Source: an uncultured Bacilli bacterium (GTDB lineage Bacteria; Bacillota_I; Bacilli_A; RF39; UBA660). From it: a stretch of DNA of 64,000 nt. Where the stretch lies: contig CANRAF010000002.1 in assembly GCA_947628535.1 (NCBI GenBank), positions 41,200 to 105,199 of the forward strand, read 5' to 3'. The notes under the pieces were generated by a model, which was not told the origin of the DNA, did no database searches, and saw only the letters and a list, made by a program, of their open reading frames with translations. Below, one piece after another: positions 6,560 through 46,141 of this stretch. Both the position numbers and the translations under genes were made by a program. The first letter of the stretch is position 1. Each line of letters starts with the position of its first letter.

Positions 6560-6847
6560 TTAACTTGTTATGTAATCGTGATAACCTCCGAGAACATTTA
6601 CGACTTTATATCCCATATTATCTAATTTTGAACAAGTTTTTACACTTTCCATTCCTTGAGTACAGTATATATAATATTCTTTTGATTTATCTAAATATTT
6701 GCTTGGATCCATAAGTAGAAAATTATTTGGTATGTTTTTACTACTTGGAATGGATCCTAAATTATATAAATAATTTTTTCTAATATCTATTATATTTACT
6801 CTACCAACCATTCCTTTTAATTCACTTGCTTTTATGCTTTTATACAT
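6560..6847 (-). CDS. single-domain rhodanese-like sulfurtransferase
   Basis: 95 aa. Active-site cysteine loop YCTQGMES. Confidence 0.6.
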   Translation of the reverse strand: MYKSIKASELKGMVGRVNIIDIRKNYLYNLGSIPSSKNIPNNFLLMDPSKYLDKSKEYYIYCTQGMESVKTCSKLDNMGYKVVNVLGGYHDYITS

Positions 6848-6991: not shown

Positions 6992-9301
6992 TTATTCATC
7001 AAAGAAATCATCAAAGAATTGATCATCAGTTACTTTAAATTTAGAAACTTCTGAATCCTTTACTGGTTCTGCTTTTTTCATTTCTGGTATATTTTGCTTA
7101 TGTGGTATAGAATTTATCTCAGGAGCTTCTTCACTGTGAACTGTTATATTTGGCTTGCTATTTAAATCAGATTGTTCTTCTTTAGGATTTACATTATTTA
7201 TAAATCCGGCGAGCATAGTAGGTGCTATATCAGAAGCAGGAGAATTTTTTAAATCCGGTTTTTCTTCTTTTGTTTCCTCTATTTTGCTTTCTTCAGTTTC
7301 AGTTTTAATTTCTTCTTTAACTTCAGTTTGTTTCTTCTTTTTTTCGGCCTCTTTTGCCTTTAATTTTTCTGCTTCTTCTTGTTCTTCTTTTTCAAGTTCT
7401 GCTATTTTAGCATCTATTTTTTTGACTAAATCATCAACATTTAATGGTTCTTGGGTATCATGACTATTATTTACACTATTATTTGTCTTTAAGGCTTCAA
7501 AAGGATTATCAAATGGAGGCATCATTCCTCCAGGTATACCTGGCATAGAAGGTGCTCCTGCCATATTCATGAATTTATCTTTTCTTTTATTTTTCATAAA
7601 CTCTTTTAAATTAAAAACTTTAACATCCTTTTTTTCTCTTTCAACAAATGGATCAGCTTCAATTTTAGGTGATCCCCAATCTATTTCAAAATTAGGTTTA
7701 AGCCTTGTTTTATAAGGATTTAATCTAATTCTTTTAACTATTGCTTCAAACTTTTTCATTCTTTGAAGATCTGCTACTGTTGCAAGAGGACGAGTTTCTT
7801 CTCTTTCTTTTTCTCCTTTTCCTACTTTTACAATCTTATCTCCACATAACTCGCTTATTTCTTTAAGAGCTGCAAGTTCTGTAGTAAGCAGGTAAAGTAA
7901 ATTATTACAGTTACTTCTGATAGTTTGAGCATCTTCTTTTCCATAAACTGCATCTAATTGAGCAAAGTTTTGAATAATCATCGTAAATCTAATTAGTCTA
8001 GATCTAGCCGCAGTAATCATTGTTGTTATGTCCTTTAAAGGTGGCATATTAGCAAACTCATCTAGAATAAAGTTTGTTCTAATAGGAAGCTCTCCTTTTG
8101 GAGAATTTTGAGCAGTATCAATTAAAGATTCATAACATTGTTTGATAAAGATAGTTGCTAAGGCGTGATAAGTTTTCTTTTCATCTTGGATTATCATAAA
8201 AACTGCTGTTTTTTTCTTACCAATTGTATCAATATCAAAATCATTTTGAGAAAGCATTTCTGATAAGTTTTCACGTGATGAGAAAAGACGAATTTTTTGT
8301 CTAAATGTAGATAAAATAGAACCTTTTGTTTCTTCTGGTGCAAAAATTGTACCAGATGCACAGGTATAAGCAGCACCTGCAGGATCTTTATCGTTAAAGT
8401 ACTCTTTAATATAGGTGCTTCTGGCCCCAAACTTTTCTTCTCCAACTGTTGTCATAAGTGAAATACTATTAATATTTATTTCTTCTTCTTTAGCATCTTC
8501 AAAAAGCCCTAAAGCAAGTCCCGCAAAATAATCTGCTGAGGTTTTTTCCCAGAATGGATCTTTATTAGCACTTGATTCTTCATATAGAATATTAGCTGCT
8601 AAATCATCTAAAAGTTCCATAGCTTTATCAGTATTACCTTCTTTGTATAACTTATATGGAAGATGAAGCGGATTCCAAGTATTACCACGTTGTGGATCAC
8701 GGAAATTTAAAACAAGTATTTGGTATCCTCTTTGTTTTAAAAGGCCGGCACTTTCACGGTAAATTTCACCCTTAGGATCTGTTACAATCATTGATTCACC
8801 CTTTTTAGCAAGTATTTTTACTAATGGATGAATTATACACTGAGTTTTACCTGTACCAGTAGAACCAATTACTAAGTTGTGACTTTCTCCATCATCTACC
8901 CATAATTTTTGACCATTACTTACAATTGGAAATCCAGCATGTTCATAATTTTCATCACTAACATCAAGTTCTGATAAAGTTTTTTTCATTTCTTTATCAG
9001 TACACCATCTTGAAAAACCTTTTTCATCTTTTGGTTCAGATGAAATACCAAAACCCTTTTCCTGTTCAAAGAAGTAATTCTTTACTGTTGCAAACAAGAA
9101 AACCATGGCGAAGGCATAAAAAACGATAACTGCTGGTAAATTTTCAACTAGTGCTGTAAATGGATTAAGCCCGGCAAATGTTCCTTCATTAGCAAATGAA
9201 GAAATATTATTAACTAAAATTGATACTACTATTAAAAGAAGTAGTGCAAAAAGTGCAAATATCATCCAGTCTTGTGCTGAAGCTTTAAATTTTAGTTTCA
9301 T
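6992..9301 (-). CDS. type IV secretion coupling protein (VirD4/TraG/PcfC-like T4CP)
   Basis: Two N-terminal TM helices; Walker A LVIGSTGTGKT; Walker B FILDEFANM. About 230-aa K/E-rich low-complexity C-terminal tail ending DDQFFDDFFDE. RBS AAGGGAGGG. Confidence 0.8.
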   Translation of the reverse strand: MKLKFKASAQDWMIFALFALLLLIVVSILVNNISSFANEGTFAGLNPFTALVENLPAVIVFYAFAMVFLFATVKNYFFEQEKGFGISSEPKDEKGFSRWCTDKEMKKTLSELDVSDENYEHAGFPIVSNGQKLWVDDGESHNLVIGSTGTGKTQCIIHPLVKILAKKGESMIVTDPKGEIYRESAGLLKQRGYQILVLNFRDPQRGNTWNPLHLPYKLYKEGNTDKAMELLDDLAANILYEESSANKDPFWEKTSADYFAGLALGLFEDAKEEEININSISLMTTVGEEKFGARSTYIKEYFNDKDPAGAAYTCASGTIFAPEETKGSILSTFRQKIRLFSSRENLSEMLSQNDFDIDTIGKKKTAVFMIIQDEKKTYHALATIFIKQCYESLIDTAQNSPKGELPIRTNFILDEFANMPPLKDITTMITAARSRLIRFTMIIQNFAQLDAVYGKEDAQTIRSNCNNLLYLLTTELAALKEISELCGDKIVKVGKGEKEREETRPLATVADLQRMKKFEAIVKRIRLNPYKTRLKPNFEIDWGSPKIEADPFVEREKKDVKVFNLKEFMKNKRKDKFMNMAGAPSMPGIPGGMMPPFDNPFEALKTNNSVNNSHDTQEPLNVDDLVKKIDAKIAELEKEEQEEAEKLKAKEAEKKKKQTEVKEEIKTETEESKIEETKEEKPDLKNSPASDIAPTMLAGFINNVNPKEEQSDLNSKPNITVHSEEAPEINSIPHKQNIPEMKKAEPVKDSEVSKFKVTDDQFFDDFFDE

Positions 9302-9326: not shown

Positions 9327-11117
9327 TTATAGTCCTCCACCAGTTCCAAACGAATCTAATTCTTCTGGTGTAACTATTACTGTAATACGCATTCTACGGG
9401 ATCCACAAACAAATAAGGCTTCTCCCTGTGAATAACGTTTTATACTTTCTTTTTCATTATCATTTAAATCTATAAGCAATGAAAGATCTTCAACTGCTTG
9501 TTTTTTAAGGCCCATTACTAAATAATAAGATGCATTATCAAAGATTGCTTTTCCTTGAGTTATTACTGCCTGTGATGTAAAATCACTTGGTTGTTGTGTA
9601 ATTATTATATTTCCCGTATTGTATTTACGAGAACGTCTTTGAATTTGAGCTAAAAAGTCAGCTCCTAAAACATTTCCTCCAGAAAGAAGAACATGTGCTT
9701 CATCTACCATTAATACTGTGTTTTGTGTTGGGTCTAAACATAGACTCCAAGCATATTTTAAAACGTTAAATAATAGAGCATTTCTAATATTAACATCTGT
9801 ATTCATAAGTTCTCTAATATTGAATACTATGAAATTACTACGTGGTGATATAGTTGTTTTTCCATTAAAGTAAAATCTAAGTTCATTAGTAAGTGGTCTT
9901 ATTTTAAGTTCAAGCCTTTCCATTATATCACGTTCATGAGTCATATCTGTCATTGAAGTAAGTTTTCCTTTGATTGTTGTATATACGTCATCAAATGTTG
10001 GATAGTGTTCACTAGTAAATGTTGAAAAATCAGTATTAAATCCTATTCCAAATCTTTGATATGTCTCTTGAGTAAGTTCTATAAATAAATTAAGAACATC
10101 CTCTTCAATAGATGGATCATAGTATTTCATAAATGCTTTTAAAAACTGAAGTGTTTTGGTAAGAACTGTGTATCCAAGGCCTTGCCTTATTTCATCATCA
10201 TCAGCATCTATTAATACTTCAAATGGATTAATAAGTCCAAATTCGCCACCCTTTCCTAAATCTATTGTATCTCCACCAACGGCTTCAACCATTTCTTTAA
10301 GTTCGTTTTCAGGGTCGATTGCTACTATTTGATAACCGTTTCTTATAGCGGTTCTTAAAAGTAATTTAGCAGCAGTACTTTTACCTGAACCAGAAGTACC
10401 TAAAATAATCATATTAGCATTTACTCTGTTATGTTCTTTTCTCATTTGATATAGGAATTGGTTAAACATAACAACCCCACCAGAGAAATCTGTTCCAAGA
10501 AGAACTGAAGGCCCTGGATCTTTAATGCTATCAAATATATATGGATACATTCCAGCCATTGTAGGACTTGGCATAATTGTTCCAATTCGCTCTTCTACTT
10601 CTTGTTTTGGGAAAACTGGAATTATTGATTTTAAAACTTGTTCTTGTTCAAATCTTAAAGGAATTGCTCTAAGCTGCATAGCATCTAAATAGTTTTTAAC
10701 TTGAAGTTTTTTAAGATCTAAATCTTCTTTTGACTCGCCAGTTACTATAATATGCATTTGAAAATCAAACGTTTTTGATTGAGCAGCTGCAAGTTGTTGA
10801 ATGAATGATTCAAGTGTTTCATAGTCTTGTCTTATACTTTCTTGATATGTTGCATCTTTTTCTTCTTGATATCTTATTTTCATTGAAGCAAGTTCTTTAT
10901 TAAGCATTTTTGTTAAAGTTGAAAATGGTACAGGGATATGCTTAATTACTATTTTAACACCTGGCATATTAGTTATGTTTGATAAAAATCCTACACCGAC
11001 ATATCTAGGATAACCAACAACTGTTAAAATAGTCATGAATTTATCACTAGCAACTATCATGTTGCTGTTTGTAAAATCAAGCCCTTTTGGAGCCACTTCG
11101 CTTTTAAAGTAACTCAT
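9327..11117 (-). CDS. VirB4-family T4SS ATPase (TrsE/PrgJ/ConE-like), short 596-aa form
   Basis: Walker A GTSGSGKS; Walker B LMVDEAH. Has its own RBS GGAGGGG. ATGA start/stop overlap with the upstream 233-aa ORF. Confidence 0.8.
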   Translation of the reverse strand: MSYFKSEVAPKGLDFTNSNMIVASDKFMTILTVVGYPRYVGVGFLSNITNMPGVKIVIKHIPVPFSTLTKMLNKELASMKIRYQEEKDATYQESIRQDYETLESFIQQLAAAQSKTFDFQMHIIVTGESKEDLDLKKLQVKNYLDAMQLRAIPLRFEQEQVLKSIIPVFPKQEVEERIGTIMPSPTMAGMYPYIFDSIKDPGPSVLLGTDFSGGVVMFNQFLYQMRKEHNRVNANMIILGTSGSGKSTAAKLLLRTAIRNGYQIVAIDPENELKEMVEAVGGDTIDLGKGGEFGLINPFEVLIDADDDEIRQGLGYTVLTKTLQFLKAFMKYYDPSIEEDVLNLFIELTQETYQRFGIGFNTDFSTFTSEHYPTFDDVYTTIKGKLTSMTDMTHERDIMERLELKIRPLTNELRFYFNGKTTISPRSNFIVFNIRELMNTDVNIRNALLFNVLKYAWSLCLDPTQNTVLMVDEAHVLLSGGNVLGADFLAQIQRRSRKYNTGNIIITQQPSDFTSQAVITQGKAIFDNASYYLVMGLKKQAVEDLSLLIDLNDNEKESIKRYSQGEALFVCGSRRMRITVIVTPEELDSFGTGGGL

Positions 11118-11815
11118 ATTGGCATCACCCCTCCAGATTCATATTTTTTTCCTCCATTTAAGAAGTTATCTATTATCATTCTAAGATCGTCATTTGATGT
11201 TTGACTTGCCACAAGACCGGCACTGGCTAAACTATTTATCAAATTACGAAGTCTTTTTTGTAAAAGTTCTCCATTTTTTTCTTTAAACAGAATAAAGTAT
11301 TCAGTATCTACAACATCATTATTGATAAAATATTCTCCTTTTTGCATATCTTGTGAGATGAGTTTTCTTATTCTTTGATCTTGATTTTTATTATAAAGAA
11401 CTTGAAGTTCTGCTTGATAAACTGCGATATCTACAGGACGATCTGCTACTACTAACCAAAATTCAAAATCAATAGTGTTATAGAAATTCATAAGTCCTAT
11501 TAATGCATTATCCATGGAAACTTGGTCTAATATGAAAATGTTTCTAGGTTGTATTTTAACACCTGTAATCATTTCATTTCTATTATTATACATAATTCCA
11601 TTACTAATAGCTTTAAGTGGTAACCAATTTTCTGTATATTTGGGATTTTTTTGAGCGGCTTTTGGCATAACTTTGCCACTTTGTTTATTTTCCTCATTAT
11701 TATTTACAGGTGTATTTATACTATTTATACCCGAATTAACACTTTGATTTACTTGCCCATTTCCCGAATTATTCATCTGATTGTTCATATTTATAACACC
11801 AACCTCTCCATACAT
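11114..11815 (-). CDS. T4SS-associated protein of unknown function, translationally coupled to virB4
   Basis: 233 aa with an N/Q/S-rich low-complexity N-terminus and no TM segment. Its stop overlaps the virB4 start (ATGA). Might be a detached VirB4 N-terminal-domain-like protein. Confidence 0.4.
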   Translation of the reverse strand: MYGEVGVINMNNQMNNSGNGQVNQSVNSGINSINTPVNNNEENKQSGKVMPKAAQKNPKYTENWLPLKAISNGIMYNNRNEMITGVKIQPRNIFILDQVSMDNALIGLMNFYNTIDFEFWLVVADRPVDIAVYQAELQVLYNKNQDQRIRKLISQDMQKGEYFINNDVVDTEYFILFKEKNGELLQKRLRNLINSLASAGLVASQTSNDDLRMIIDNFLNGGKKYESGGVMPI

Positions 11816-12089
11816 ATTTTCTTCGGTTTACAAAGTAAAATTTATACATTTCATGAATAAATACTCTTGAATTATGATAATTTGCAATTGGGAATACTAG
11901 AAATGCTGAGATAAAGGCAGGAGTTAAAGTTATTATTGCTGCCCAAATCTCAATTATTGGGAGTATTGTAAAGAGTATAAATGATATTAATATTCCACTT
12001 GCCAATATTATCAAATCAAGTTTACTTAAAAAACCAAATATTAAACCTTGTTTTTTACTATTAGCAGGTACTAAATAATTGTAATCCAT
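11769..12089 (-). CDS. PrgI/TcpE-family small membrane protein (VirB3-like)
   Basis: 106 aa with two long hydrophobic helices. N-terminus YLVPANSKKQGLIFGF fits the PrgI-family pattern. Lies just upstream of the VirB4 gene, as VirB3 homologues do. Confidence 0.5.
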   Translation of the reverse strand: MDYNYLVPANSKKQGLIFGFLSKLDLIILASGILISFILFTILPIIEIWAAIITLTPAFISAFLVFPIANYHNSRVFIHEMYKFYFVNRRKYVWRGWCYKYEQSDE

Positions 12090-16210: not shown

Positions 16211-16657
16211 ATGTATCTTGAGGTGTTAATATTGAAAAAATTTAGATGGTTAATAATACTTGCTATTATTATTATTGCTTTAGTTGCTGTTATCTTTATA
16301 TTTTCTAATGATGAAAGCAAATATATTCATGAAATATCTTTTAGTGAAGTTGTTAATAAAATAGAAAATAAAGATGATTTTATTCTTTATATTAAACAAA
16401 ATGGATGTGAACATTGTAGAGCATTTACTCCTAACTTTGTAAGTGTGTTAAGTGATAATAATTTAGAAGCTTATGCTCTTAATCTTAGTGATATTTCTGA
16501 AGAAGATAATGAATCTTATGAAGAAATGTTTGATATTGATGGAACTCCAACAGTACTATTCTTTGATGATGGTAATGAAAGTTTAATTAGAATTAGTGGT
16601 GAACAAACTAAAGCAAATATTAAATCAAAACTTGAAGCAACTAAATTTATAAAATAG
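16211..16657 (+). CDS. membrane-anchored thioredoxin-like thiol-disulfide oxidoreductase
   Basis: N-terminal TM anchor followed by a CxxC active site (NGCEHCRAF); 148 aa, TlpA/ResA/StoA-like. The true start may be the TTG at 16232, which follows a GAGGTG RBS. Confidence 0.6.
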   Translation: MYLEVLILKKFRWLIILAIIIIALVAVIFIFSNDESKYIHEISFSEVVNKIENKDDFILYIKQNGCEHCRAFTPNFVSVLSDNNLEAYALNLSDISEEDNESYEEMFDIDGTPTVLFFDDGNESLIRISGEQTKANIKSKLEATKFIK

Positions 16658-31235: not shown

Positions 31236-32282
31236 TTAGACTCTAGTATAAGTTGCTGCTGAATATTTACTATATACCCTCTTTCCATTTACCATTTTAT
31301 AAGCTTTAACACGATAATATGTTCCGCTTCCCTTTTTTAGGTTATATGATGTTGTTGTAGAAAGTTTAGTAGTTGATTTTATATAGTAATATTGTTTATT
31401 TTTAGTATTATATTTAAATACTGCATATCCACTTGCACCTGTTACTTTTTTCCAAGTGATTTTGGCAACTCCACTTCTATATTTTGTTGCTTTTACTTTA
31501 GTTGGAGTACTTGGAATAGGTTTTACAGCTATTACTTTAGAAAGTTTAGTATAATATTTTTTACCTGTTGTAGGACTTTTTACATAAGCTCTTATTTTGT
31601 AGTAATATGTAGTTCCTGTTTTTAACCCTTTTGATAAGTTTACGCTTATATGTGCTGTTGTATAAGTATAGTATTCATACTTTTTACTTTTTGGATTATA
31701 TTTATAGATTTGAATAGCATCATAATCTGCATCACTTTCCCATCTTATTTTTATTTTATTGTAAGAAACAGATGAAGCTTTTACATCATAAATCTCTGGA
31801 AGAATAACTCCGTCTGCTCCTATAGTTGCTTTCTTTCCAGGTTCGAAAGTGTATACTCCTACTCTATTGTAATTACTATCTAATAAATACCAAGTAACTT
31901 CATATAGGTCATAGCTTTCCCAGTATTTTTGATCTAAAGTAAAATCAGCTGTAGTTAAAGATGATGGAACGTCTACAAATACAAAAAGTGCTTTTTTAAA
32001 TGCTCCTGTTTCTATAGTTGTGACTCCCTCAGGAATATAAAGTTCACTAGAAATTACTCCATCAAAAGCATTACTTCCAATTGTTGTAATTTTTGTGCCA
32101 TTTATTGTCGCAGGTATTTTAATAATATCATATTTATTCCCACATTTATAATTAGTTATTTTTGCATTATTACTAGAATCTACTTCAAAACATGAAATTG
32201 GGGCATCAGCATAAACATTTGATAATCCAAAAATACTAAATACAAAACCTATAAAAAATACAAAAATTAGTTTTCTTTTCAT
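31236..32282 (-). CDS. secreted surface protein: BspA-type leucine-rich repeats followed by fibronectin type III-like repeats
   Basis: Signal peptide. LRR_5-like segments (IPATINGTKITTIGSNAFDG..., IPEGVTTIETGAFKK) then two Fn3-like modules (KIKIRWESDADYDAIQIYKYN; KITWKKVTGASGYAVFKYN). Confidence 0.55.
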   Translation of the reverse strand: MKRKLIFVFFIGFVFSIFGLSNVYADAPISCFEVDSSNNAKITNYKCGNKYDIIKIPATINGTKITTIGSNAFDGVISSELYIPEGVTTIETGAFKKALFVFVDVPSSLTTADFTLDQKYWESYDLYEVTWYLLDSNYNRVGVYTFEPGKKATIGADGVILPEIYDVKASSVSYNKIKIRWESDADYDAIQIYKYNPKSKKYEYYTYTTAHISVNLSKGLKTGTTYYYKIRAYVKSPTTGKKYYTKLSKVIAVKPIPSTPTKVKATKYRSGVAKITWKKVTGASGYAVFKYNTKNKQYYYIKSTTKLSTTTSYNLKKGSGTYYRVKAYKMVNGKRVYSKYSAATYTRV

Positions 32283-36067: not shown

Positions 36068-37216
36068 CTATCTTATATATTTTTTTGTTAAATAATCTTT
36101 ATTTGGTTTTATATTTTCTTTAAAAAATGAAAAATCATTATCTAAAAAGCCAATATCTTCAAACATTTGTCTATCACTTATAAGTGCTTGGTTTGATAAA
36201 AAGTTTTTAATTTCTTTTAATCCTTCTTTTTTATCCTGTTTATAAATTTTAAAAAAGTATTCTGCTATTAATGAACCATAGCCATAATGTATTAAATTTA
36301 GATAGTTTTCAACATCTTCAAACTCAAATGCGAATTCTCTTCCTTTATTATATTCTTTATAGCAGTCATAATCTATGATTTGATAATATTGATCATCAAA
36401 AATACAAGAACCATTAATACATGCAAAAACAACAAAGTTTAAATGCATTAAATTACAAAAAATATCTTCATTTTTTAAATACAAACTTCTTTCCGCATCA
36501 TCATAAAAAATTCTATTTTCAATTAAAAAATCAATAAATATTCTCTCAAAAAATTCAGACATTACTTCACTAAAACTATAATAGTACCTAAACATTTGTT
36601 GATTTGAGGACATTGATCTCATAAATTCATTTTCATAGGAATGACCGATCTCATGGACTAAAGTTTGAAGATATGTAACTGAAGGACTATTCCCATTTTC
36701 TAAAGAAATCTTATCTGGTTCAATTCCTAATCCGTTTATACATGTACCTAAATATTCTGATTCATATTCTGAATCTTCAGGTTTAAAATTTTCAGTTAAT
36801 ATTATATTATTTGAATTTTTTAGATTATTATAAATTGCTCCAGAAGCTGAATCTACACTATTTAAGAACTCTAATAGTATTTCTTCTTCTTTTTTACTTG
36901 ATACTTTATTTTTTGGATATAATGATGCAAACGTATCATTATAATACCCTAACTCTTTATACACATCATAAATTTTACTTGTTATATTTAAATGAATATC
37001 AAAATTACTTATAAGCAGATCATAATACCCGCTATCTAAAATTAACCTACTATTTGCCTTTTTGCCAAACAGCTTTTTATAATACTTTATCTTTTCTTTT
37101 TCATCTAATCGAGCATAATATATGCATATAAGATTACTTATCATCCATCTTTTAGCACTACTTTTTTCATACTCTAATTTTTCTAAAAGTTCATCTATTT
37201 TATTCATCAAAACCAC
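36068..37216 (-). CDS. cytoplasmic HExxH zinc-metallopeptidase-like protein
   Basis: TLVHEIGHSY, with a downstream Glu-containing segment (SEVMSEFFE) that could supply the third zinc ligand. No signal peptide; 382 aa. Confidence 0.4.
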   Translation of the reverse strand: MVLMNKIDELLEKLEYEKSSAKRWMISNLICIYYARLDEKEKIKYYKKLFGKKANSRLILDSGYYDLLISNFDIHLNITSKIYDVYKELGYYNDTFASLYPKNKVSSKKEEEILLEFLNSVDSASGAIYNNLKNSNNIILTENFKPEDSEYESEYLGTCINGLGIEPDKISLENGNSPSVTYLQTLVHEIGHSYENEFMRSMSSNQQMFRYYYSFSEVMSEFFERIFIDFLIENRIFYDDAERSLYLKNEDIFCNLMHLNFVVFACINGSCIFDDQYYQIIDYDCYKEYNKGREFAFEFEDVENYLNLIHYGYGSLIAEYFFKIYKQDKKEGLKEIKNFLSNQALISDRQMFEDIGFLDNDFSFFKENIKPNKDYLTKKYIR

Positions 37217-38161: not shown

Positions 38162-38190
38162 AAAAAGGACTTTTTAGTCCTAATGTTCGT
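38160..38190. terminator. bidirectional terminator between the vanY-like gene and the lipoprotein gene
   Basis: AGGACT-tttt-AGTCCT flanked by A7 and T-rich sequence. Confidence 0.5.
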
Positions 38191-38896
38191 ATAATCCATG
38201 TATTTTTTGTCTAGTTATATCATCAATTTCGTTTAAAGTCCACTTACCATCTACTTTTGTTAGTGTAAAATCAATTGTATATTTTACTCTGTCTTTTGCA
38301 TCCTTTAATTTTTCAAGTCTATATTCTACATACTTAGCATCTGATGCAATATCATCAGCAGCATCTTCTGTTTTATCTTTTGCATCACTTACTGCATCTT
38401 TAGCAGAATCTACTGCATCCTTTGCTGCGTCCTTAACTGAACCTGCTGCATCTTCTACTTTATCTTTGGTTTCTTCGGCAATTGTTTCTACAGCATCATC
38501 ATTATCACTAGTGTTATCTTTAAATTCATCTGGATTGTTTTTGTAGTATTCTTCAGCGTCTTTATTTATTTTATAATAATCATAAACTTCAATTTCAGCA
38601 GTTACTGTTGCTGTATCACCATTGATAACTTCATCTTTGATTTCATAAGTTAAATCTTGATATTGCTTTTTCATAATATCTGAATATGTAGTTTTTTGAT
38701 CATCATCCATTAACGAATCAGAATCTACCATTTCTTTTAATTGTTCAATAACTGTTTCATCTTGGTTTTTATAATTATCTAAGAAATTTTCAACCTTTTT
38801 AGTTGGTGTATTATCCATTGAACAACCACTCAATAATACAATAGCCATAATACATGAAAAACATAATATTAATTTCTTCATAAAAAATCCTCCCAT
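38180..38896 (-). CDS. lipoprotein with acidic Asp/Ala/Lys-rich repeat region
   Basis: Lipobox LLSGC. The likely start is MKKLIL. Repetitive DAAKDAVDSAKDAVSDAKDKTEDAADD segment. Confidence 0.5.
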   Translation of the reverse strand: MGGFFMKKLILCFSCIMAIVLLSGCSMDNTPTKKVENFLDNYKNQDETVIEQLKEMVDSDSLMDDDQKTTYSDIMKKQYQDLTYEIKDEVINGDTATVTAEIEVYDYYKINKDAEEYYKNNPDEFKDNTSDNDDAVETIAEETKDKVEDAAGSVKDAAKDAVDSAKDAVSDAKDKTEDAADDIASDAKYVEYRLEKLKDAKDRVKYTIDFTLTKVDGKWTLNEIDDITRQKIHGLYEH

Positions 38897-38927
38897 TTCT
38901 AGTGTGAGAGAATTTTTTTATTTTATA

Positions 38928-39695
38928 CTATATTTCATTTAATTTATTCTTTTTGATTTTTAAAATTATTACAAATATTACGCCTGCAATAGCGATAATT
39001 CCTACTACTGTTAACCCAATTGTTAAAACTGAGTTATTTTTTTCTTTTTGCTCTTTATTATTTTCAGTATCATTTATATTTGTCTCATCTTCATCTATTT
39101 GAGGATCATTAATTTCTTCATCTATTTCATCCATTGGTTCAGTTTCTAACTCTGGGATTTTTGCTGAAAATGATAAATTAAAATCTTTGCTATCTACATT
39201 CCAAGTATATTTATTTCCGTTAATTGAATCAGCGTTAGAGTCTAATACATTTAAGTCTGTTGTTATATTTACCATTATATTATCTGCTCTTTTAAGACAA
39301 AAGAAAGGACTACTTAATTCTATTGATATTTCTCCATCATTATTTGAAAAATCAAATGTATTAAAGCATTCATTAATTATTCTTTCACTTGTTACAAAGA
39401 TCGATGAAAAATCATTTTTTAAAGTAATAATATACTCATCATTAGCTATTCTTTTTGTTTTTGTATATTTTACACTATCATTATTATCAAAATATATTGG
39501 GCCATTCACTACTGATGTTAAAAAATCATAGTTTCCAGAAGTATCAAGTTCACTCTTTTTTACTTTATAAACTATAGTTTCATGAAAATATATATTTTTA
39601 TCAATAGTCAAATTATAGTTTATACTGCTTGCATTAACATTACTTATTCCAAATAATAATAAAGTAAGAATTAATATATAATATCTCAATTTCAT
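38928..39695 (-). CDS. secreted protein with C-terminal TM anchor (tail-anchored; paralogue A)
   Basis: Signal peptide, then a C-terminal hydrophobic helix and a basic tail ending NEI. Shares VLDSNADSINGNKYTWNVDS with the neighbouring paralogue. Confidence 0.4.
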   Translation of the reverse strand: MKLRYYILILTLLLFGISNVNASSINYNLTIDKNIYFHETIVYKVKKSELDTSGNYDFLTSVVNGPIYFDNNDSVKYTKTKRIANDEYIITLKNDFSSIFVTSERIINECFNTFDFSNNDGEISIELSSPFFCLKRADNIMVNITTDLNVLDSNADSINGNKYTWNVDSKDFNLSFSAKIPELETEPMDEIDEEINDPQIDEDETNINDTENNKEQKEKNNSVLTIGLTVVGIIAIAGVIFVIILKIKKNKLNEI

Positions 39696-39705
39696 ATAGT
39701 CCTCC

Positions 39706-40446
39706 TTAAATTTCTGAAGCTTTTTTGGATTTAAGCTTTAAAATGAAAATTGTTATTAATACAATTACTCCTATAATAACTCCTATAGCTATAAAAATAG
39801 ATTGATTATTTTTATTATTGTTATTTCTTTCTGATGTAGAATTTGTATCATTATAATTCTTTTTATCTTCTTCATTTGTTTTATATGATTTGCTTTTATC
39901 AATTACAAAATATATACTTATATTTCTAGAATTAGAATTGTTTATCTTCCATGTATATATATTATCATTTTCATTTATAGTATTAGCATTACTATCTATT
40001 ACTTTGTATGGCGTAATTACATTAATGCTGATATTAGAAAAACTACATATTAAACCACTACTAGTAGAAAAAGTAATATTGTTTCCTTCTTCAATAATAT
40101 TGTAATAGTTAAAACAATTTCTTATCATTGAAGATCTAGTATGACTTTCAAAATCAAATTCTGCATTTGCTGTAAAACTTTTTTTTGAATCATCAAAACT
40201 AACATTATAATACTCAACACCAGATTCTTTTTCTCTTTTTTGCGCAAATGGATTTTCTAATTCTTGATCATAATACAAAGGAAGTGGAAAACCATTCCAG
40301 TTTTTAAATTCTGAATATTCTGAAGAATTACTAGCTGTAGCTGTTATATTTTCAGTTACTTTATTATCATCAATATTTATATTAACATTAGCTGAACAAC
40401 CTGTTAAACAAAAAAGTATCCCAAATAAAACTATTTTTTTTTTCAT
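39706..40446 (-). CDS. lipoprotein/secreted protein with C-terminal TM anchor (paralogue B)
   Basis: Lipobox LTGC. C-terminal TM plus basic tail ending SEI. VIDSNANTINENDNIYTWKIN matches the paralogue A motif. Confidence 0.4.
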   Translation of the reverse strand: MKKKIVLFGILFCLTGCSANVNINIDDNKVTENITATASNSSEYSEFKNWNGFPLPLYYDQELENPFAQKREKESGVEYYNVSFDDSKKSFTANAEFDFESHTRSSMIRNCFNYYNIIEEGNNITFSTSSGLICSFSNISINVITPYKVIDSNANTINENDNIYTWKINNSNSRNISIYFVIDKSKSYKTNEEDKKNYNDTNSTSERNNNNKNNQSIFIAIGVIIGVIVLITIFILKLKSKKASEI

Positions 40447-40456
40447 TATAACACCT

Positions 40457-42976
40457 CTACTTTGTTATTATCCAAAATCCGCTAGCTTCAGGAACAATGA
40501 CCTTATCAAAATTCCATTTTTTACTATTTTTCTTACCAGATGGATCTTGAACCATTACTTCTTTACCATCAGAACCTGTAAGAACAATAAAGTGTCCATT
40601 CTTAGTAAATGTTCCCGGTCCCATTGATGCAATAACTAAAGCGTTTCCTTTGTTAAGAGCTATTAAAACTTCATCTGAGTTTTTAACATCAACAGTTTTC
40701 ACCTTAAGTCCATATTTTTTACCTGCTTCAGTGAAGAATTCCCATACAGTACCAATCTCTCTACAATAATTATTTGAACAAGCAAAATTTGTAAGCTCAA
40801 CTGGATCATGTTTTTCGTTTAATAAACTTGAAGCTACAATAGCCATAGAAGTTGGTCCACAACCATGAGTTGCTATAGTTCCATATGAGCCATAAGGCTC
40901 TTGATAATCTGTTTGGTAATAAACCCATATTTTGCCATTAAAACTATTCTTTCCTAAAACACATGTATTAGAAGAACCTGTTATCTCAACTCCATCTGAA
41001 TAAAAATATTTTAAAATTTCATCAAATTTTTTTCCTTCATCTTGCATTTGTCTGGCAACTAGTTGGCTCATTCCATAAGCATGTCCTTTTCCATTTAATG
41101 ATCCATTAACAACTGTTTTACTATGTGGTGAATTAATTGTGATTTTATGTGTTTCTTTATTGGGCAATCTAGTATAAGTAGCTGTACACGTAGTGCCATT
41201 ACATTTTGCATCTGGGCAATCCGTATCGTTAATACAAAATGCATCATACATTGAAGAAAATACTTTTCCATCGTATCTTAAAAGCATTCCTGATGTCTCA
41301 TCTGCAGCCTTTTTAGCCTTTTCATTTGGATTTTCAGTAAATACTTGGGCACTTGTACTATTTTCAATTTTAGATGAACAATTTTTCGTTGCATTAACAG
41401 CATATGTTCTTGAAGCAATAGCTTGTGCTTTCATATTTTCAAGATTATCACCGTCATAGTAAGAATTTTCTCTTGAAACAACTCCAGCTACATAATCATC
41501 AAGTTTTAATGTCCCTACACCACTAACAGTTATTCCATTGGAGCAATAATCAGCGGAATTCCCACTTGTACCACTTGAATCACAACATCTTTCTTCAGAT
41601 GTAATGGAACCACTTGATTCATAGTCAGAAGTATCATTTGCAGCATTAGCACTATCTCCTGCTGGTTCACCATCCCACATACTACCACAATTTTTTTTGA
41701 AACCTTCATAATCTAGAAAATAATCAACATAACCATATACAAGTTTATTATTTATTTTCATTCCAAAATGTAGATGATTCCCTGAAGAGTTACCTGAACT
41801 TGCAACATTACCAATAAGTTGGCCTTTACCTACTTTATCACCTTTTTTTACTTTTATTGAACCATTAATCATATGATAATAATGTGTTTCTATTTTTCCA
41901 CCATGTAGAATCCTTACATAATTACCCATTGTCCAGCCACATTGGTCACCTGTATGAGTATTAGCATCAAAACAACCATCATGAGTTTCTGTTACTACTC
42001 CTGATTGAACAGCATACACTGGAGTTCCTCTTCCTATTGCTAAATCTATACCATGATGAGTACTGCCCCATCTTGGCCCAGGTTTACTAGTTATTGTATA
42101 ACTAAACTTTTTCCCTAATGGATTTTGCATTTTACATAAAAACTCTTTTTCATCTCCCGAACCACTATAATCTTCTCCATTATAAGTACTTCCTGAACTT
42201 CCATCTGAAGAGCACATTAATCCAGTTAAACCTGCTGCTGTACCACCAAAAATTGCAAGAAAGATAAGTAATGCTATAATCATTAAAGGTATAAGACTTA
42301 TAGCTATTATTTTAACTTGTATTGGCGCTATCATCCATAATGCTCTTATTCCTTTTTGCTTCATTTCATTTAAATTAGGAGCTACAACATCATTTTGATT
42401 TTCTTTATCTTTATTATTTTTATTATCTTGTTTATTATTCTTTAGTCTGTTAAGGGGATTTAGTCTTGAAAGTCCAAGTCCTGTTCCATTATTTTTTCTC
42501 CCTAATTGTTTACCATCATTATTATTGGCATTATTTGTATTTTTAGGACTTTGTGGCCCTTTGTTATTTTCATTTTGTTTTGAATTATTAGGATTGTTTC
42601 CTTTATTTTTATTTGTTCCTCCACCAGGTAAAGGATTTTTTTTATTACTATTTTCCCTATCAGGATTATTTCCTTTATTTTTATTATCTGTATTTCCCTT
42701 ATTTTTATTAGGAGTATTTTTATTTTTATTATTTTTTAAACCTAGAGCAGGGTTTCTACCATTTGAACCATTTTTTACGCCAGATGCTAAACCTTTCCCA
42801 AAAGTTGATACTTGATTCATAGAATTTGAACCATTAAAATTTTCATCACCAGAATCAATATTTATTCCATTGTCATTAAAACTATTATCATTATGATAAT
42901 CATCTGAATTTTGAGATGTAGGTAGTTCACTATTTGCTGTTTTTCTTTTTGCTTCTTCATTATCCAAGTTTATCAC
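40457..42976 (-). CDS. multidomain peptidoglycan hydrolase: N/K/G-rich N-terminal region, TM, M23 (LytM) peptidase, SpoIID/LytB domain, C39-like cysteine peptidase; candidate T4SS cell-wall hydrolase (PrgK/CwlT functional analogue)
   Basis: M23 motifs HHGIDLA and GNHLHFG. SpoIID-like DYVAGVVSRE...AQAIASRTYA. C-terminal GCGPTSMAIVAS ... GHFIVLTG, giving a Cys/His papain-fold pair. About 200-aa low-complexity N-terminus followed by a TM helix (LIPLMIIALLIFLAIFGG). Confidence 0.6.
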   Translation of the reverse strand: MINLDNEEAKRKTANSELPTSQNSDDYHNDNSFNDNGINIDSGDENFNGSNSMNQVSTFGKGLASGVKNGSNGRNPALGLKNNKNKNTPNKNKGNTDNKNKGNNPDRENSNKKNPLPGGGTNKNKGNNPNNSKQNENNKGPQSPKNTNNANNNDGKQLGRKNNGTGLGLSRLNPLNRLKNNKQDNKNNKDKENQNDVVAPNLNEMKQKGIRALWMIAPIQVKIIAISLIPLMIIALLIFLAIFGGTAAGLTGLMCSSDGSSGSTYNGEDYSGSGDEKEFLCKMQNPLGKKFSYTITSKPGPRWGSTHHGIDLAIGRGTPVYAVQSGVVTETHDGCFDANTHTGDQCGWTMGNYVRILHGGKIETHYYHMINGSIKVKKGDKVGKGQLIGNVASSGNSSGNHLHFGMKINNKLVYGYVDYFLDYEGFKKNCGSMWDGEPAGDSANAANDTSDYESSGSITSEERCCDSSGTSGNSADYCSNGITVSGVGTLKLDDYVAGVVSRENSYYDGDNLENMKAQAIASRTYAVNATKNCSSKIENSTSAQVFTENPNEKAKKAADETSGMLLRYDGKVFSSMYDAFCINDTDCPDAKCNGTTCTATYTRLPNKETHKITINSPHSKTVVNGSLNGKGHAYGMSQLVARQMQDEGKKFDEILKYFYSDGVEITGSSNTCVLGKNSFNGKIWVYYQTDYQEPYGSYGTIATHGCGPTSMAIVASSLLNEKHDPVELTNFACSNNYCREIGTVWEFFTEAGKKYGLKVKTVDVKNSDEVLIALNKGNALVIASMGPGTFTKNGHFIVLTGSDGKEVMVQDPSGKKNSKKWNFDKVIVPEASGFWIITK

Positions 42977-43055
42977 CTGCCTTATAGTTAGTTATAACAA
43001 TAGTATATCATATAATACGACAAAAAAAAAGAAAAGAAATTTATATTTAATATTT

Positions 43056-45446
43056 CTAATCTTCTATTTTATATTTTTTAAATATGAAGTATCCTCCACC
43101 ACCTATTAAAAGTGCTCCTATTAATACTGTACTTATAGCTATTACACTTCCTGTATCTGGTGCTTTTATTTTTTTAACTTCATTAAATATTTTTAAATGA
43201 TCTAAATCTGTATCTCCATTATCTTTTGATCTATCTAATTTATATAAATTTGATTTTGCACTTGTTAAGTTTACATTACCATTTGAAAGAACTCTAAATT
43301 TTACTTCTGTTTTTAAAGCTTGATATCCTTTTGGTGCTACTTTTTCTGTTAAAGTGTAATCCCCTATTGGAATGTTGAATTCTTTAGGTTCTTTACCTGA
43401 TTTATATTTTAGGAATACTTCTCCTTTTTCATTTTTAATTTCTATTGTTGCTCCAGGAAGTTCTTTTTTATCTGTTATTGATTGTTTACTTATTTTCATA
43501 TCTATTGGCTTGTTTGTTACACTTAAGGTTACTCTCTTTTGAACTTGTCCTGGAATATCTTCTTCTTTTAATCCTTCAAATAAACTTGTATCTCCTTCAA
43601 TATATTTTGTCATTAAATCTTTATCTGTTTCATCTACTTTTAAATCTTTATTTAAATCTGATGCGTAAAATTGTAATGGTGTTTCTTCTATTTCTTCTGC
43701 TATTATTTGTTCTATTATTTTTAAATCATCATTATTTATTTTTCCATCATTTGTTGGATCTCCAAGTTTATATTTTTCAAGAGGTAACATAGGTTCATTT
43801 TCATCTGGTACTGCTTCTGTTCCTTGTTTTACAAATTTTAAAGCATCATTATCTTTACTTAATGTAAAATAAAGTGGTTCTTCAAGTACTTTGTACCAAT
43901 CATTTGCTTTTACTTCTTCTAAAATATAATCTCCATATGGGATATTTTCAAATTCTGCTATTCCTCTTTCATTTGTTATTACATTTGCTACTTCTTTTCC
44001 ATTTATGTCTACTGCTGGAGTTTGTTCTCTATTATCTTGTAGTAATTTAAATTCTACTCCTGCTATTACTGCACCTGTTTCATCATCTTGTTTTAAAATA
44101 GTTACATTACCATATGGAATATTATATAAGGCTTGTACTTCTTCACGATTTGCTTCAATTTCTTCGTTTTGTGGTTTTAAAATTATTGGAATACACAAGT
44201 TTTTAGCTCCAATACTTTCAGATTGTTCTGTATCAACTACATACCCTTCAGGTACTTTTGTTTCTTTTACATAATATGTTTTTTGAGCTGCTTTATCAAG
44301 TGGATAATATAAATTATCCCATGATACTTCTCCATTTTTATTAGTTTCTTTATCTGGAAGAGCATTTCCTAAATAATCTGTTGCTTTAGTTGTACATGCA
44401 TCATCTGTAAATATTCCAAATGTTGCGCCTTGCATATTTTTTCCAGTATATTTATCTATTTTATGAAGTCTAATTTTTCCTTTTCCGATTTCTTGATATT
44501 TATACCCAACATAACCAGTTACTGTTTTAGTGGTTGGAGGAGTAATATATGTAGTTTGTTGTAAATCTTTATCGTTACGAGTATATACTTTCCCACCTGT
44601 TTTAAATACTTTTGACATACTAATTGGGGTTGTTACACTATCATTTTTTGAAGTAATTGTTAATGTTTGCCCACTTTTATTTAGAGTAATACCACTTGGG
44701 GCTGTTCCTAGAGTATATGTTGAAAATACTCCGCGCGAATCTGTTTTATTATTTGTAAAATGATGATTTGCTTCTACATATTTAAGTTCCATTCTATTTG
44801 GATCTTGCAATGCTGCTTGACTTGTATCAAAAGCAAAACTTGGAATTAAATTATGATTTAATACATCTTCTCTTATTTCTACTACTTTCTCTGCAACACT
44901 TGATGCCAAACTACCTGATAATAAACTTTGTATTTGCGATTTAGTAAGTGTTCTCCATTCTTTCGTATCATCAGCAACTTCTTTTGATACAAAATGTACT
45001 AAAACTTGAGTAGCTAATCTTGAAACGGTACATTTATTTTCATTTAAATCACTTTCAGTTTCTTCAGCATAATATCCGTAGGCAAGGGCTCTAGCCATTA
45101 AACTACTATCAACATTGTCATCTGATGAAACATAATCAGGGCCAGTTAAAGTGTCTGAATGATTTAAACTAGGCATACCTTCTTCTGTACAATATACAAC
45201 GTGTCCGTTTGCATTATATATAGTTACATGATTTATGACACCATCGTAGTAACCTGAATTTTTTACACTATTTTTTACAGCATACTTACCATAACTCTCA
45301 TGCAATCCTATTGAACTTGTGCTACATTGCTGATAATGAATAGTTGCGGCGTATACATTTTCTGATATAAAAATACCAATTATTAAAGTCAATGCTATCA
45401 TAAAATATAAATTTATATGCTTTATATGTTTAGACATATCTATCAC
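43056..45446 (-). CDS. cell-wall-anchored adhesin-like protein: signal peptide, CnaB/SpaA-type domains, dockerin-like Ca-binding repeats, C-terminal sorting-signal-like APDTG + TM + KKYK
   Basis: CnaB-like GKIRLHKIDKYTGKNMQGATFGIF and GNVTILKQDDETGAVIAGVEFKL. Dockerin-like DPTNDGKINNDDLKIIEQII and DLNKDLKVDETDKDL. C-terminus KAPDTGSVIAISTVLIGALLIGGGGYFIFKKYKIED. Confidence 0.55.
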   Translation of the reverse strand: MIDMSKHIKHINLYFMIALTLIIGIFISENVYAATIHYQQCSTSSIGLHESYGKYAVKNSVKNSGYYDGVINHVTIYNANGHVVYCTEEGMPSLNHSDTLTGPDYVSSDDNVDSSLMARALAYGYYAEETESDLNENKCTVSRLATQVLVHFVSKEVADDTKEWRTLTKSQIQSLLSGSLASSVAEKVVEIREDVLNHNLIPSFAFDTSQAALQDPNRMELKYVEANHHFTNNKTDSRGVFSTYTLGTAPSGITLNKSGQTLTITSKNDSVTTPISMSKVFKTGGKVYTRNDKDLQQTTYITPPTTKTVTGYVGYKYQEIGKGKIRLHKIDKYTGKNMQGATFGIFTDDACTTKATDYLGNALPDKETNKNGEVSWDNLYYPLDKAAQKTYYVKETKVPEGYVVDTEQSESIGAKNLCIPIILKPQNEEIEANREEVQALYNIPYGNVTILKQDDETGAVIAGVEFKLLQDNREQTPAVDINGKEVANVITNERGIAEFENIPYGDYILEEVKANDWYKVLEEPLYFTLSKDNDALKFVKQGTEAVPDENEPMLPLEKYKLGDPTNDGKINNDDLKIIEQIIAEEIEETPLQFYASDLNKDLKVDETDKDLMTKYIEGDTSLFEGLKEEDIPGQVQKRVTLSVTNKPIDMKISKQSITDKKELPGATIEIKNEKGEVFLKYKSGKEPKEFNIPIGDYTLTEKVAPKGYQALKTEVKFRVLSNGNVNLTSAKSNLYKLDRSKDNGDTDLDHLKIFNEVKKIKAPDTGSVIAISTVLIGALLIGGGGYFIFKKYKIED

Positions 45447-45502
45447 TCCTATTCTCTAAAACTATTATAACTTGAAAAATTAACTAAATCAATAGTTTTT
45501 TA

Positions 45503-46141
45503 TTACTTTTCAGTTAAATTAGCATTTGAAAGGAGCAGTATTTCAAATAGATGTTTATGTCTTTTTTCAAAATTTTTTAAACTTTCTTTTAAATATTTAT
45601 ATGCATATTCAAAATTACTACTTTCTTTATTTGTAAATTCATAATATAAATAAAGAAGTTTATCATAATTTTTATTTAAAAATAAATCATCTATCTCCTC
45701 ATTAAGTCTTTTCCTCATATCTTTTTCTTTTCTCGTTAAACTATCTTTTTCTTTATTTATTTCTCCATTTTGTACATATTTTACATTAGTATACTCAAGA
45801 CTTTCAGCAATTTCTAAAACCTCTCTTTCTTCATCTATTAAAAGTCTTGAAAATAAAATAGGCATACTTTCTTTTATTAAAACTCCTATTGCAATTAGTC
45901 CATCAGTAAAAAGACAAATACTTCCAGCATCTTTCATTCCATTCATTTCATATTTAGGAACTTTAGAAGAAAAGTCACTTGAAAATATTACTTTTTTATA
46001 AAGTATATCTTCTATAACTTTAGTATCTACTTTAAATAAAGTTACTTTTTTTATATATTTAATACTATCAGTATCTTCCCATTCAAAAAATTCAATTAAA
46101 TCTTCATTAAAGTTAAGTAAAATATCATAAATATAAGCCAT
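45503..46141 (-). CDS. hypothetical cytoplasmic protein
   Basis: 212-aa ORF with no recognised motif. Confidence 0.3.
   Translation of the reverse strand: MAYIYDILLNFNEDLIEFFEWEDTDSIKYIKKVTLFKVDTKVIEDILYKKVIFSSDFSSKVPKYEMNGMKDAGSICLFTDGLIAIGVLIKESMPILFSRLLIDEEREVLEIAESLEYTNVKYVQNGEINKEKDSLTRKEKDMRKRLNEEIDDLFLNKNYDKLLYLYYEFTNKESSNFEYAYKYLKESLKNFEKRHKHLFEILLLSNANLTEK

Follow-up and report, generated by a model that had tools for sequence, protein, structure and literature searches.

Do five consecutive genes for surface and cell-wall proteins belong to the type IV secretion system (T4SS) whose channel genes are located elsewhere on the same chromosome segment? The question is raised by a stretch of 64,000 nucleotides from an uncultured Bacilli bacterium (contig CANRAF010000002.1; the whole stretch is hereafter called the window). 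An earlier note on this DNA had described a T4SS-related surface module at 38180-45446, likened its adhesin and hydrolase to PrgB and PrgK of pCF10, and proposed that it had been separated from the channel genes by rearrangement or had been recruited independently. Our analysis suggests that this operon, on balance, probably serves a vertically inherited chromosomal T4SS without a relaxase as its detached module for envelope and contact functions, and would contribute a VirB1-like peptidoglycan hydrolase, a covalent contact adhesin and scaffold proteins.

The window is a chromosome segment with a GC content of ∼26% from a lineage of uncultured gut Bacilli, the close relatives of which carry the database labels 'Bacilli bacterium', 'uncultured Tenericutes' and 'Candidatus Onthousia' (Onthousia is placed in Bacilli incertae sedis at NCBI). 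The five consecutive minus-strand open reading frames (ORFs) of 38180-45446 were all found at the coordinates first given, with gaps of 79, 10, 10 and 31 bp between them. In the order of transcription, with the flanking signals, the unit consists of the following features (TM, transmembrane):

45464..45492, minus strand: promoter-like site, TTGATT-17-TATAAT, shortly upstream of the adhesin gene, the best minus-strand match (10/12)
43056..45446, minus strand: predicted thioester-isopeptide (TIE)-type adhesin with a signal peptide, a class II thioester domain, three CnaB/SpaA domains, a dockerin inserted among these, and an LPXTG-like anchor
40457..42976, minus strand: TM-anchored three-domain peptidoglycan hydrolase (M23, SpoIID and C39-like), VirB1-like by design
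39706..40446, minus strand: paralogue 1 (246 aa), with a lipoprotein signal, a beta-rich ectodomain and a C-terminal TM anchor
38928..39695, minus strand: paralogue 2 (255 aa), with a signal peptide, a beta-rich ectodomain and a C-terminal TM anchor
38180..38896, minus strand: NTF2-like lipoprotein (LSGC lipobox, likely start at 38881) interrupted by a disordered acidic insert
38166..38181, minus strand: terminator-like hairpin and T-run directly after the lipoprotein stop codon, the only good one found

Promoter-like sites are not more frequent in this region than in shuffled sequences, and the promoter-like and terminator-like signals are simply compatible with an operon. Judging from the short gaps together with these two signals, the five genes most likely constitute a single transcription unit. 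The unit is set among cell-wall genes: it is flanked by uppP/bacA and, at the opposite end, by vanY and dacA, and ftsQ/murB/murG are nearby.

The hydrolase begins with a low-complexity tail of ∼200 residues, which is followed by one TM segment (hydrophobic, about residues 215-245) ahead of all catalytic domains. It combines a glycan cleaver with peptidases in three domains that all score above the Pfam cut-offs:

41741..42061, minus strand: M23/LytM metallopeptidase domain (E=3.7e-22) with intact HxxxD and HxH motifs
40982..41518, minus strand: SpoIID/LytB-type glycan-cleaving domain (PF08486, E=5.6e-13; TIGR02669, 93 bits against a cut-off of 83.3)
40541..40921, minus strand: C39-like (papain-fold) cysteine peptidase domain (PF13529, C39_2, E=7e-16)

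The M23 residues H307, D311, H401 and H403 are invariant in 18 family members, and the predicted M23 endopeptidase is apparently active. PrgK is laid out as a TM segment followed by LytM, SLT and CHAP domains (PMC11323569). The comparison with PrgK made in the earlier note therefore stands with respect to design (a TM segment and three types of hydrolase domain) but not with respect to detectable homology, because a phmmer search against PDB sequences at E<=0.001 matched M23 and SpoIID structures and did not match PrgK. Orthologues located at the same chromosomal position swap modules, with a glucosaminidase or phage lysozyme domain in place of SpoIID and a CHAP domain in place of C39. Hydrolases with swapped or lost modules were found in the relatives L007 (8691-11012), L008 (86-2560), L009 (10001-12502), L122 (9096-9905) and L097 (18557-19780), the last two of which are reduced to M23 only and to SpoIID+CHAP, respectively; the TM anchor is retained in those inspected. 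Our first homology search with the hydrolase (37 matches) under-sampled the family, because the low-complexity N-terminus took up word-index candidates; a search with the lipoprotein (1061 clusters) revealed a much wider distribution of the locus.

Outside the lineage, homologues of the C39-like domain show 34-43% identity, with E-values down to 6e-24 for plasmid copies and 1e-23 for L043. The closest of them adjoin VirB4-like genes, in the Clostridia metagenome-assembled genomes (MAGs) L043 and L046 as well as on C. botulinum pINGR16-02E1, C. beijerinckii p1 and Vescimonas pMM35_02; on the two Clostridium plasmids, the C39-like gene is also located beside a VirB6-like gene. The hydrolases of L043 and L046 carry an M23 domain as well. 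The full M23+SpoIID+C39 architecture was found in none of the plasmid copies, and no T4SS genes are present near a copy of the domain on a C. tetani plasmid.

The adhesin likely starts at the ATG at 45437, which is preceded by an AGGAG ribosome-binding site. In addition to three SpaA/CnaB-type domains above the Pfam cut-offs (PF17802, E=4e-41), it contains the following features:

44448..45350, minus strand: predicted class II thioester domain (TED), with Cys83 (codon 45189-45191) and Gln293 (codon 44559-44561) counted from the ATG at 45437
43599..43763, minus strand: dockerin type I (Dockerin_1, PF00404) between CnaB domains 2 and 3 (E=1.3e-7; 32.1 bits against a cut-off of 22.9)
43059..43175, minus strand: sorting signal for the cell wall, made up of APDTGS, a TM helix and a basic tail (KKYKIED) (TIGR01167, 17.4 against a cut-off of 15.9)

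The description of the protein as a sortase-substrate-like adhesin with CnaB-type and dockerin-like repeats was thus borne out by PF17802, Dockerin_1 and TIGR01167, all above their cut-offs, whereas the N-terminal thioester domain had gone unnoticed. A profile of the adhesin N-terminus matches the TED of SaTIE (6FX6) with E=3.1e-6, in two segments that together cover the domain. The thioester pair of SaTIE, Cys296/Gln467, which has been verified experimentally (PMC6194298), aligns with Cys83/Gln293 of the adhesin (the Gln after allowing for a 4-residue tag offset), and C83, T143, Q144 and Q293 are invariant in six adhesin orthologues. The [YFL]C-Phi-zeta motif of the thioester Cys is present (YCTE in the window, with Y82 and C83 invariant in the six orthologues). 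In the TQxxPhiW motif, T143-Q144 is invariant, and the W position is taken by W itself in one of the six orthologues and by H or Q in the other five; this W has been reported as dispensable for bond formation (PMC6194298). The best full-length PDB match of the adhesin is BaTIE (6FWV), and a CnaB domain of FbaB was also matched; a Pfam scan of the adhesin did not report a thioester-domain family. Because the TED profile match and the aligned, invariant Cys83/Gln293 pair are combined with a CnaB stalk, the protein is classed here as a predicted TIE adhesin, a type proposed to bind its targets covalently (PMC6194298). The comparison with PrgB does not extend to homology: the matches are to TED, CnaB and dockerin families only, and neither the PrgB adhesin domain nor PrgB homology was detected in Pfam, NCBIfam or PDB sequence searches.

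The sorting motif is conserved as [AV]P[DNK]TGS in the six orthologues. The dockerin, which gives weak matches to PDB dockerins, is also kept in the orthologues, weakly by Pfam; a cohesin-bearing partner was not seen in the window. A tblastn search of the thioester region against plasmids gave no match. Relative L001 contains two tandem adhesin genes (5084-9924; 787 and 775 aa), the products of which are identical in the C-terminal 60 residues and differ in the N-terminal thioester regions, which suggests diversified target specificity.

The remaining three genes encode small envelope proteins. The two paralogues share 30% identity (E=6e-10), and their C-terminal TM anchors and basic tails, which end in ...SEI or ...NEI, agree with the earlier description. 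They belong to a family of ∼220-270-aa proteins with 764 representatives at E<=1e-3 in an exhaustive search. A structure model of the 255-aa paralogue, with two sequences as input, reached a pLDDT of 47, which is too low for a fold search. A 264-aa protein of L091 that was considered as a homologue proved to be unrelated to the paralogues. The lipoprotein, whose lipobox and acidic insert (residues 124-179) conform to its earlier description as an acidic-repeat lipoprotein, is the best conserved protein of the unit (58-71% identity, as against roughly 30-50% for the hydrolase and the paralogues), and its family comprises 1061 clusters. The insert is hypervariable and disordered (alignment columns 130-200), and is absent from distant orthologues of 178-188 aa. 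The core of the structure model (pLDDT above 85) has an alpha+beta NTF2-like fold. The lipoprotein carries a lipobox in place of an N-terminal TM anchor and is not encoded in the T4SS cluster. Its assignment as a VirB8-like protein was dropped, because no VirB8 structure was among the top 50 Foldseek matches.

The T4SS channel genes that had been placed at 7-16 kb were confirmed, with VirB4, VirD4 and associated genes forming a minus-strand cassette from 16022 to 6992. The cassette and the genes at its two ends are as follows:

16211..16657, plus strand: divergent gene for a membrane-anchored thioredoxin/PedC-like protein, adjoining the pilin-like genes in all cassettes of which the upstream end was retrieved, other than those of the Onthousia-like L091/L092
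14675..16022, minus strand: three paralogous VirB2-like pilin genes (145, 138 and 109 aa), with homologues in L093, L094, L097 and L154
12113..14659, minus strand: VirB6/TrbL-like polytopic membrane protein (848 aa; PF19597; TM protein families of Mycoplasma integrative and conjugative elements (ICEs) below cut-off)
11769..12089, minus strand: VirB3-like two-TM protein (106 aa), so named from size, position and topology only; 73% identical in L154
11114..11815, minus strand: TraC-like protein (233 aa), similar to an N-terminal region of VirB4 that has been split off (positions 98-280 of the Mbov_0397 VirB4 profile, E=1.9e-12, below cut-off)
9327..11117, minus strand: VirB4 ATPase, from a domain search
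6992..9301, minus strand: VirD4 coupling protein (PF02534, E=5e-54)
6560..6847, minus strand: rhodanese-domain protein, immediately after VirD4 in most relatives

The T4SS_pilin Pfam score in the window is below the cut-off (16.6 against 26.6 bits), and the L093 homologue was listed without a mark of weakness. A gene of VirB3-like size is present at the same position in every cassette examined, and PF26593 matches orthologues of the TraC-like protein. Neither a hydrolase nor a VirB8-like protein, an adhesin or a relaxase was found in the cassette. The hallmarks of conjugative elements, namely a relaxase and integrase or replication genes flanking the T4SS, are likewise lacking: relaxase, integrase and Rep domains were detected neither among the window ORFs of >=120 aa nor, in L091, L093, L094, L097, L154 and L155, within 10 kb of VirB4. 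Across more than 120 clusters, the identity of VirB4 ranges from 73 to 100%, and it tracks or exceeds that of housekeeping proteins; in L154, for example, it is 92%, as compared with 88% for Ffh and 79% for RelA. The neighbours of the module (at one end bacA/uppP and the DUF3603-like gene, at the other vanY and dacA) are kept in relatives in which the hydrolase is only ∼45% identical. Because of this synteny, and because VirB4 is as conserved as housekeeping proteins or more so, both loci look vertically inherited, and neither resembles a recent mobile insertion. A mobile island, which we also considered, is ruled out by the flanking synteny at ∼45% hydrolase identity and by the lack of integrase and relaxase genes. 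Genes resembling those of Tad/Flp pili are located a few kb upstream of the VirB6-like gene in L091 (1-3430) and L097 (400-4040), with RcpC in L097 and, in both relatives, a CpaF-like T2SSE ATPase together with unannotated 260-300-aa genes; they are absent from the window.

The two loci are closer to each other than the 24 kb given previously, the distance from the lipoprotein stop codon (38180) to the first T4SS gene (16022) being 22.2 kb; the hydrolase gene is 24.4 kb from the closest T4SS gene in the window and is therefore located outside the T4SS cluster. The intervening region was correctly described as housekeeping (dcw, ffh, relA and mutL genes) and contains mraZ, rsmH, a penicillin-binding protein (PBP) gene, yqeY, ffh, relA, dtd, truB and mutL.

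A comparison with relatives, as the earlier note had proposed, revealed arrangements in which the two loci are linked. L097, L118, L122 and L123 share a gene order of VirB4, VirD4, rhodanese, VTT, RmuC, DUF3603-like, tRNA synthetase, paralogue homologue, TM-anchored hydrolase, lipoprotein homologue and dacA, and the module-type genes are located 4-7 kb downstream of VirD4 on the same strand (the distance between the hydrolase and VirD4 is 4-5 kb in L097 and L122). The VirB4 proteins of the linked contigs are 75-80% identical to that of the window, and the homologues of the paralogues and the lipoprotein show 31% (E=7e-16) and 38% (E=2e-48) identity, respectively. L116 has the same layout, on a contig that starts at the rhodanese gene, just downstream of the expected VirD4. 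In L149, the lipoprotein gene is directly followed by genes for cadherin-like surface proteins with C-terminal TM anchors, and then by pilin-like and VirB6-like genes. In the Onthousia-like L091 and L092, VirB4 and VirD4 are separated by a gene for a SpoIID-containing TM protein of 770 aa. The genes of the close relative L154 run from bacA and DUF3603-like through two small genes, thioredoxin, the cassette and rhodanese to truB, relA, dtd and ffh, so that the cassette fills the slot between bacA/DUF3603 and truB/relA, which in the window is filled by the module and the block from vanY to mutL. Since the arrangements in the L097 group, L149, L091 and L154 bring the two loci together or into the same slot, the two were more likely linked at one time and then rearranged than recruited independently. 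Of the two origins proposed previously, the linked relatives thus favour rearrangement, although a link at the level of the operon was not found: housekeeping genes intervene in the linked relatives, and four contexts contain no module gene within 10 kb of the cassette.

One argument for assigning the operon to the T4SS is complementarity. Gram-positive T4SSs normally carry VirB1-, VirB3-, VirB4-, VirB6-, VirB8- and VirD4-like components (PMC12857230), and it is because the cassette lacks a VirB1-like hydrolase, a VirB8-like protein and an adhesin that the operon is a candidate for supplying them. A T4SS role is further suggested by the hydrolase, the design of which matches PrgK and the C39-like relatives of which are embedded in T4SSs, by the linkage in relatives, and by the adhesin, since efficient mating of pLS20 in liquid requires a class II thioester adhesin that is encoded in its conjugation operon (PMC8092201). 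Under this reading, the sortase-anchored adhesin would display its class II thioester domain on the CnaB stalk, and the domain would form a covalent bond with the surface of a partner cell, resulting in stable cell-cell contact as proposed for TIE_pLS20 in pLS20 mating. The membrane-anchored hydrolase would open the thick peptidoglycan locally and thereby allow the channel and the VirB2-like pilins to cross the wall, which is the role of VirB1 (cf. PrgK in pCF10). The two tail-anchored paralogues and the NTF2-like lipoprotein may act as a wall-spanning scaffold or as targeting factors, a role that is played elsewhere by VirB8-like proteins, and the present separation of the two loci would have arisen by chromosomal rearrangement of a once-linked system.

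Several findings weigh against this assignment, and they are best considered together with its strongest competitor, namely that the operon is an independent surface and wall unit unrelated to the T4SS. The adhesin would then bind host mucus, food particles or other cells, the hydrolase would be an autolysin that serves wall turnover or the separation of daughter cells, the small proteins would be wall accessories, and the proximity of the T4SS would be a by-product of a small, rearranging genome. The cell-wall neighbours of the operon fit such a unit. The steadiest linkage of all is that of the lipoprotein with dacA/vanY, the lipoprotein gene being found alone beside dacA in many human-gut contigs; it may belong to the cell-wall backbone and just be co-transcribed with the module in this case. 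In none of the relatives is a full window-type module located inside the T4SS operon, and in the linked ones the two parts are kept apart by rhodanese, VTT, RmuC, DUF3603-like and tRNA-synthetase genes; across the relatives, seven different chromosomal contexts of the cassette were encountered, and in four of these (L093, L094, L154 and L155) no module gene is present within 10 kb of it. The adhesin is an optional member of the module, because it is absent from that of L011. No regulatory motif is common to the two loci, and k-mers shared between their upstream regions do not exceed those in shuffled sequences.

The comparisons of the individual proteins contain adverse points as well. In addition to the failure to detect PrgK homology, the 770-aa protein of L091 gives a weak match to the SpoIID domain of the window hydrolase and is otherwise dissimilar to it. 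Profiles of the paralogue family matched nothing in PDB, in Pfam or among the L149 proteins. In a Foldseek search of the lipoprotein fold against PDB, the best match was YcdA at E=5.6e-3, none reached E<=1e-3, and no VirB8-family entry was among the top 50. Finally, multi-domain hydrolases also occur outside T4SSs, and the M23, SpoIID and C39 domains that constitute this one are common there, as are thioester adhesins (PMC6194298).

Against an independent unit, however, three arrangements (the L097 group, L149 and L091) place module-type genes within 10 kb of the cassette, which, by our estimate, is seemingly above chance for a genome assumed to be of Mb size, and the relatives of the C39-like domain are embedded in T4SSs. 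A TM-anchored hydrolase with three domains is a T4SS design, whereas autolysins of such a kind are typically secreted and carry wall-binding repeats. Moreover, the cassette would otherwise be left without the hydrolase that Gram-positive T4SSs need (PMC12857230). We therefore regard an independent unit as rather unlikely, although it is the alternative that survives best.

Construction of a sortase-dependent pilus or fibrillar adhesin, with the SpaA/CnaB protein as a pilin-like subunit, a sortase encoded elsewhere and the hydrolase clearing peptidoglycan, appears very improbable. It would account for the weak match of the adhesin to the SpaH/EbpB family of LPXTG major pilins and for its [AV]PxTG sorting signal, signals of this type being known from pilins. 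The match to that family, however, is far under the cut-off (NF033902, 50 bits against 95). Sortase genes are present in the relatives L119 (890-3190, with a TLYTC motif and next to pilin-like genes with C-terminal TM anchors) and L155 (19969-20382; PF04203), and because of these genes the lineage can process LPXTG-type substrates; nevertheless, no sortase is encoded in the operon or in any annotated ORF of the 64-kb window. The operon also contains just one CnaB-type gene, whereas sortase-pilus loci typically comprise two or three pilin genes and a class C sortase. In addition, a CnaB stalk with a thioester domain at its N-terminal end is how tip adhesins and monomeric TIE proteins are built (PMC6194298).

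The idea that the hydrolase is a sporulation enzyme of the engulfment type in an operon serving spore formation can hardly be correct, even though it has a SpoIID domain and a weak SpoIIQ-like M23 match and L091 carries spoVA genes (so that some members of the lineage may sporulate): the hydrolase scores 72.3 with TIGR02870 against a cut-off of 234.75 and is thus not SpoIID proper, its M23 motifs are intact while those of B. subtilis SpoIIQ are degenerate, its orthologues replace SpoIID by a glucosaminidase or a phage lysozyme, a swap that a dedicated engulfment enzyme would presumably not tolerate, no sporulation genes were found in the window, and we know of no sporulation counterpart of the adhesin or the tail-anchored proteins.

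If the operon is indeed the envelope and contact module of the T4SS, the machine may be non-conjugative, because the core cassette is vertically inherited and no relaxase is encoded nearby. To our knowledge, almost all Gram-positive T4SSs studied to date are conjugation machines on mobile elements, with the hydrolase and the adhesin encoded within the transfer operon. The T4SS core of this lineage is chromosomal, has no nearby relaxase and, in L154, is more conserved than Ffh. According to a recent review, non-conjugative roles of Gram-positive T4SSs are a long-standing open question (PMC12857230), and our literature search found nothing relevant on T4SSs in RF39, RFN20, ML615J-28 or Onthousia-type gut Bacilli. 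As a more speculative proposal, which we consider unlikely as it stands, the cassette and the operon could together form a vertically inherited, non-conjugative contact machine of reduced-genome gut Bacilli, a Firmicute counterpart of the essential T4SS of Patescibacteria, in which the thioester domain would act as a 'harpoon' that bonds a partner bacterium or a host surface, the hydrolase would breach the wall, and the channel would exchange molecules other than mobile elements.

A T4SS with a detached envelope module, if confirmed, would be called incomplete by detection tools limited to the surroundings of virB4. The operon would also provide candidate envelope parts of monoderm T4SSs, namely the tail-anchored family and the NTF2-like lipoprotein family described above, and the lineage would offer a possibly more tractable parallel, outside the candidate phyla radiation (CPR), to the essential Patescibacteria T4SS.

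Several further genes of the window deserve mention. Next to the module is a gene that recurs in the relatives:

45503..46141, minus strand: DUF3603-like cytoplasmic protein, a recurring chromosomal anchor beside the module or the T4SS cassette and a possible member of the system

This gene adjoins the module in the window and window-like relatives and the cassette in L154 (2344-2976) and L093 (18300-18935), and is located between the two in L097 (16060-16698) and L122. A 382-aa cytoplasmic protein (36068-37216), which gives only a weak Peptidase_M3-like match, is kept between vanY and dacA in all window-like relatives. Beside mutL (29936-32282) are three ORFs without Pfam matches, encoding a protein with a prepilin-like (type IV) N-terminus (MNNRAFTIMELIAIV...), a 180-aa protein and a 348-aa secreted protein of repeat-rich appearance. 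Homologues of the prepilin-like and 180-aa ORFs are present in L001, L008, L011 and L100, and the prepilin-like gene is located beside mutL in L008 also.

Among known systems, pCF10 is the one with which the operon was originally compared. The window hydrolase resembles PrgK in that its N-terminal tail is cytoplasmic and is followed by one TM segment and by three extracellular domains of the same types, namely a metallopeptidase, a glycan cleaver and a Cys peptidase (PMC11323569), and both are presumed to open peptidoglycan for the channel. The two differ in that PrgK contains SLT and CHAP domains where the window hydrolase contains SpoIID and C39-like domains, in that the LytM domain of PrgK is degenerate (PMC11323569) whereas the M23 site of the window hydrolase is intact, and in that the window gene lies outside the T4SS cluster. 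PrgB is, like the window adhesin as interpreted here, an LPXTG-anchored surface adhesin tied to a Gram-positive T4SS, but it has a lectin-like adhesin domain and binds extracellular DNA (PMC8092201), in contrast to the covalent thioester binding predicted here. Because homology to both proteins was tested and not found, the operon, as far as can be judged from the sequences, resembles the PrgB/PrgK pair by design only and is not to be filed as such a pair. The clostridial C39 hydrolases of the plasmids, L043 and L046 are closer in one respect, as their C39-like domain is homologous to that of the window and, in L043 and L046, is also combined with M23; however, they are encoded directly beside VirB4-like genes, unlike the window gene, and the plasmid copies lack the complete domain set.

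The channel itself invites comparison with two other groups. Mycoplasma ICEs provide the best NCBIfam matches of the VirB6-like and TraC-like proteins (the Mbov_0396, Mbov_0397 and MMCAP2_0566 families), although these are far below the cut-offs. These ICEs are mobile and, their hosts being wall-less, do without VirB1-like and VirB8-like genes (PMC12857230); the organism studied here, in contrast, is walled, as indicated by PBPs and mur genes, and has a candidate VirB1-like hydrolase. The T4SS of Patescibacteria (Saccharibacteria) is similar in being of the monoderm type, chromosomal and lineage-wide, in having no adjacent relaxase, and in possessing an array of divergent VirB2-like pilin paralogues (PMC12102498, PMC12857230). 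It differs in its CPR host and in its six pilins, as compared with gut Bacilli and three pilins here, and in that here a separate locus apparently encodes the VirB1-like function.

With respect to the adhesin, the closest counterparts are TIE_pLS20 and BaTIE/SaTIE, which share an N-terminal class II TED with aligned Cys and Gln followed by a CnaB stalk (PMC8092201; PMC6194298); BaTIE also has an LPXTG-type anchor, as the window adhesin does. The latter is distinguished from these TIE adhesins by the dockerin in its stalk, by the replacement of the W of TQxxPhiW in most orthologues and by APDTG instead of LPXTG. TIE_pLS20, moreover, has no sorting signal and is encoded within a conjugation operon, whereas the window adhesin has such a signal and lies outside the T4SS cluster. 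By analogy with TIE_pLS20, the window adhesin is plausibly a T4SS mating or contact adhesin.

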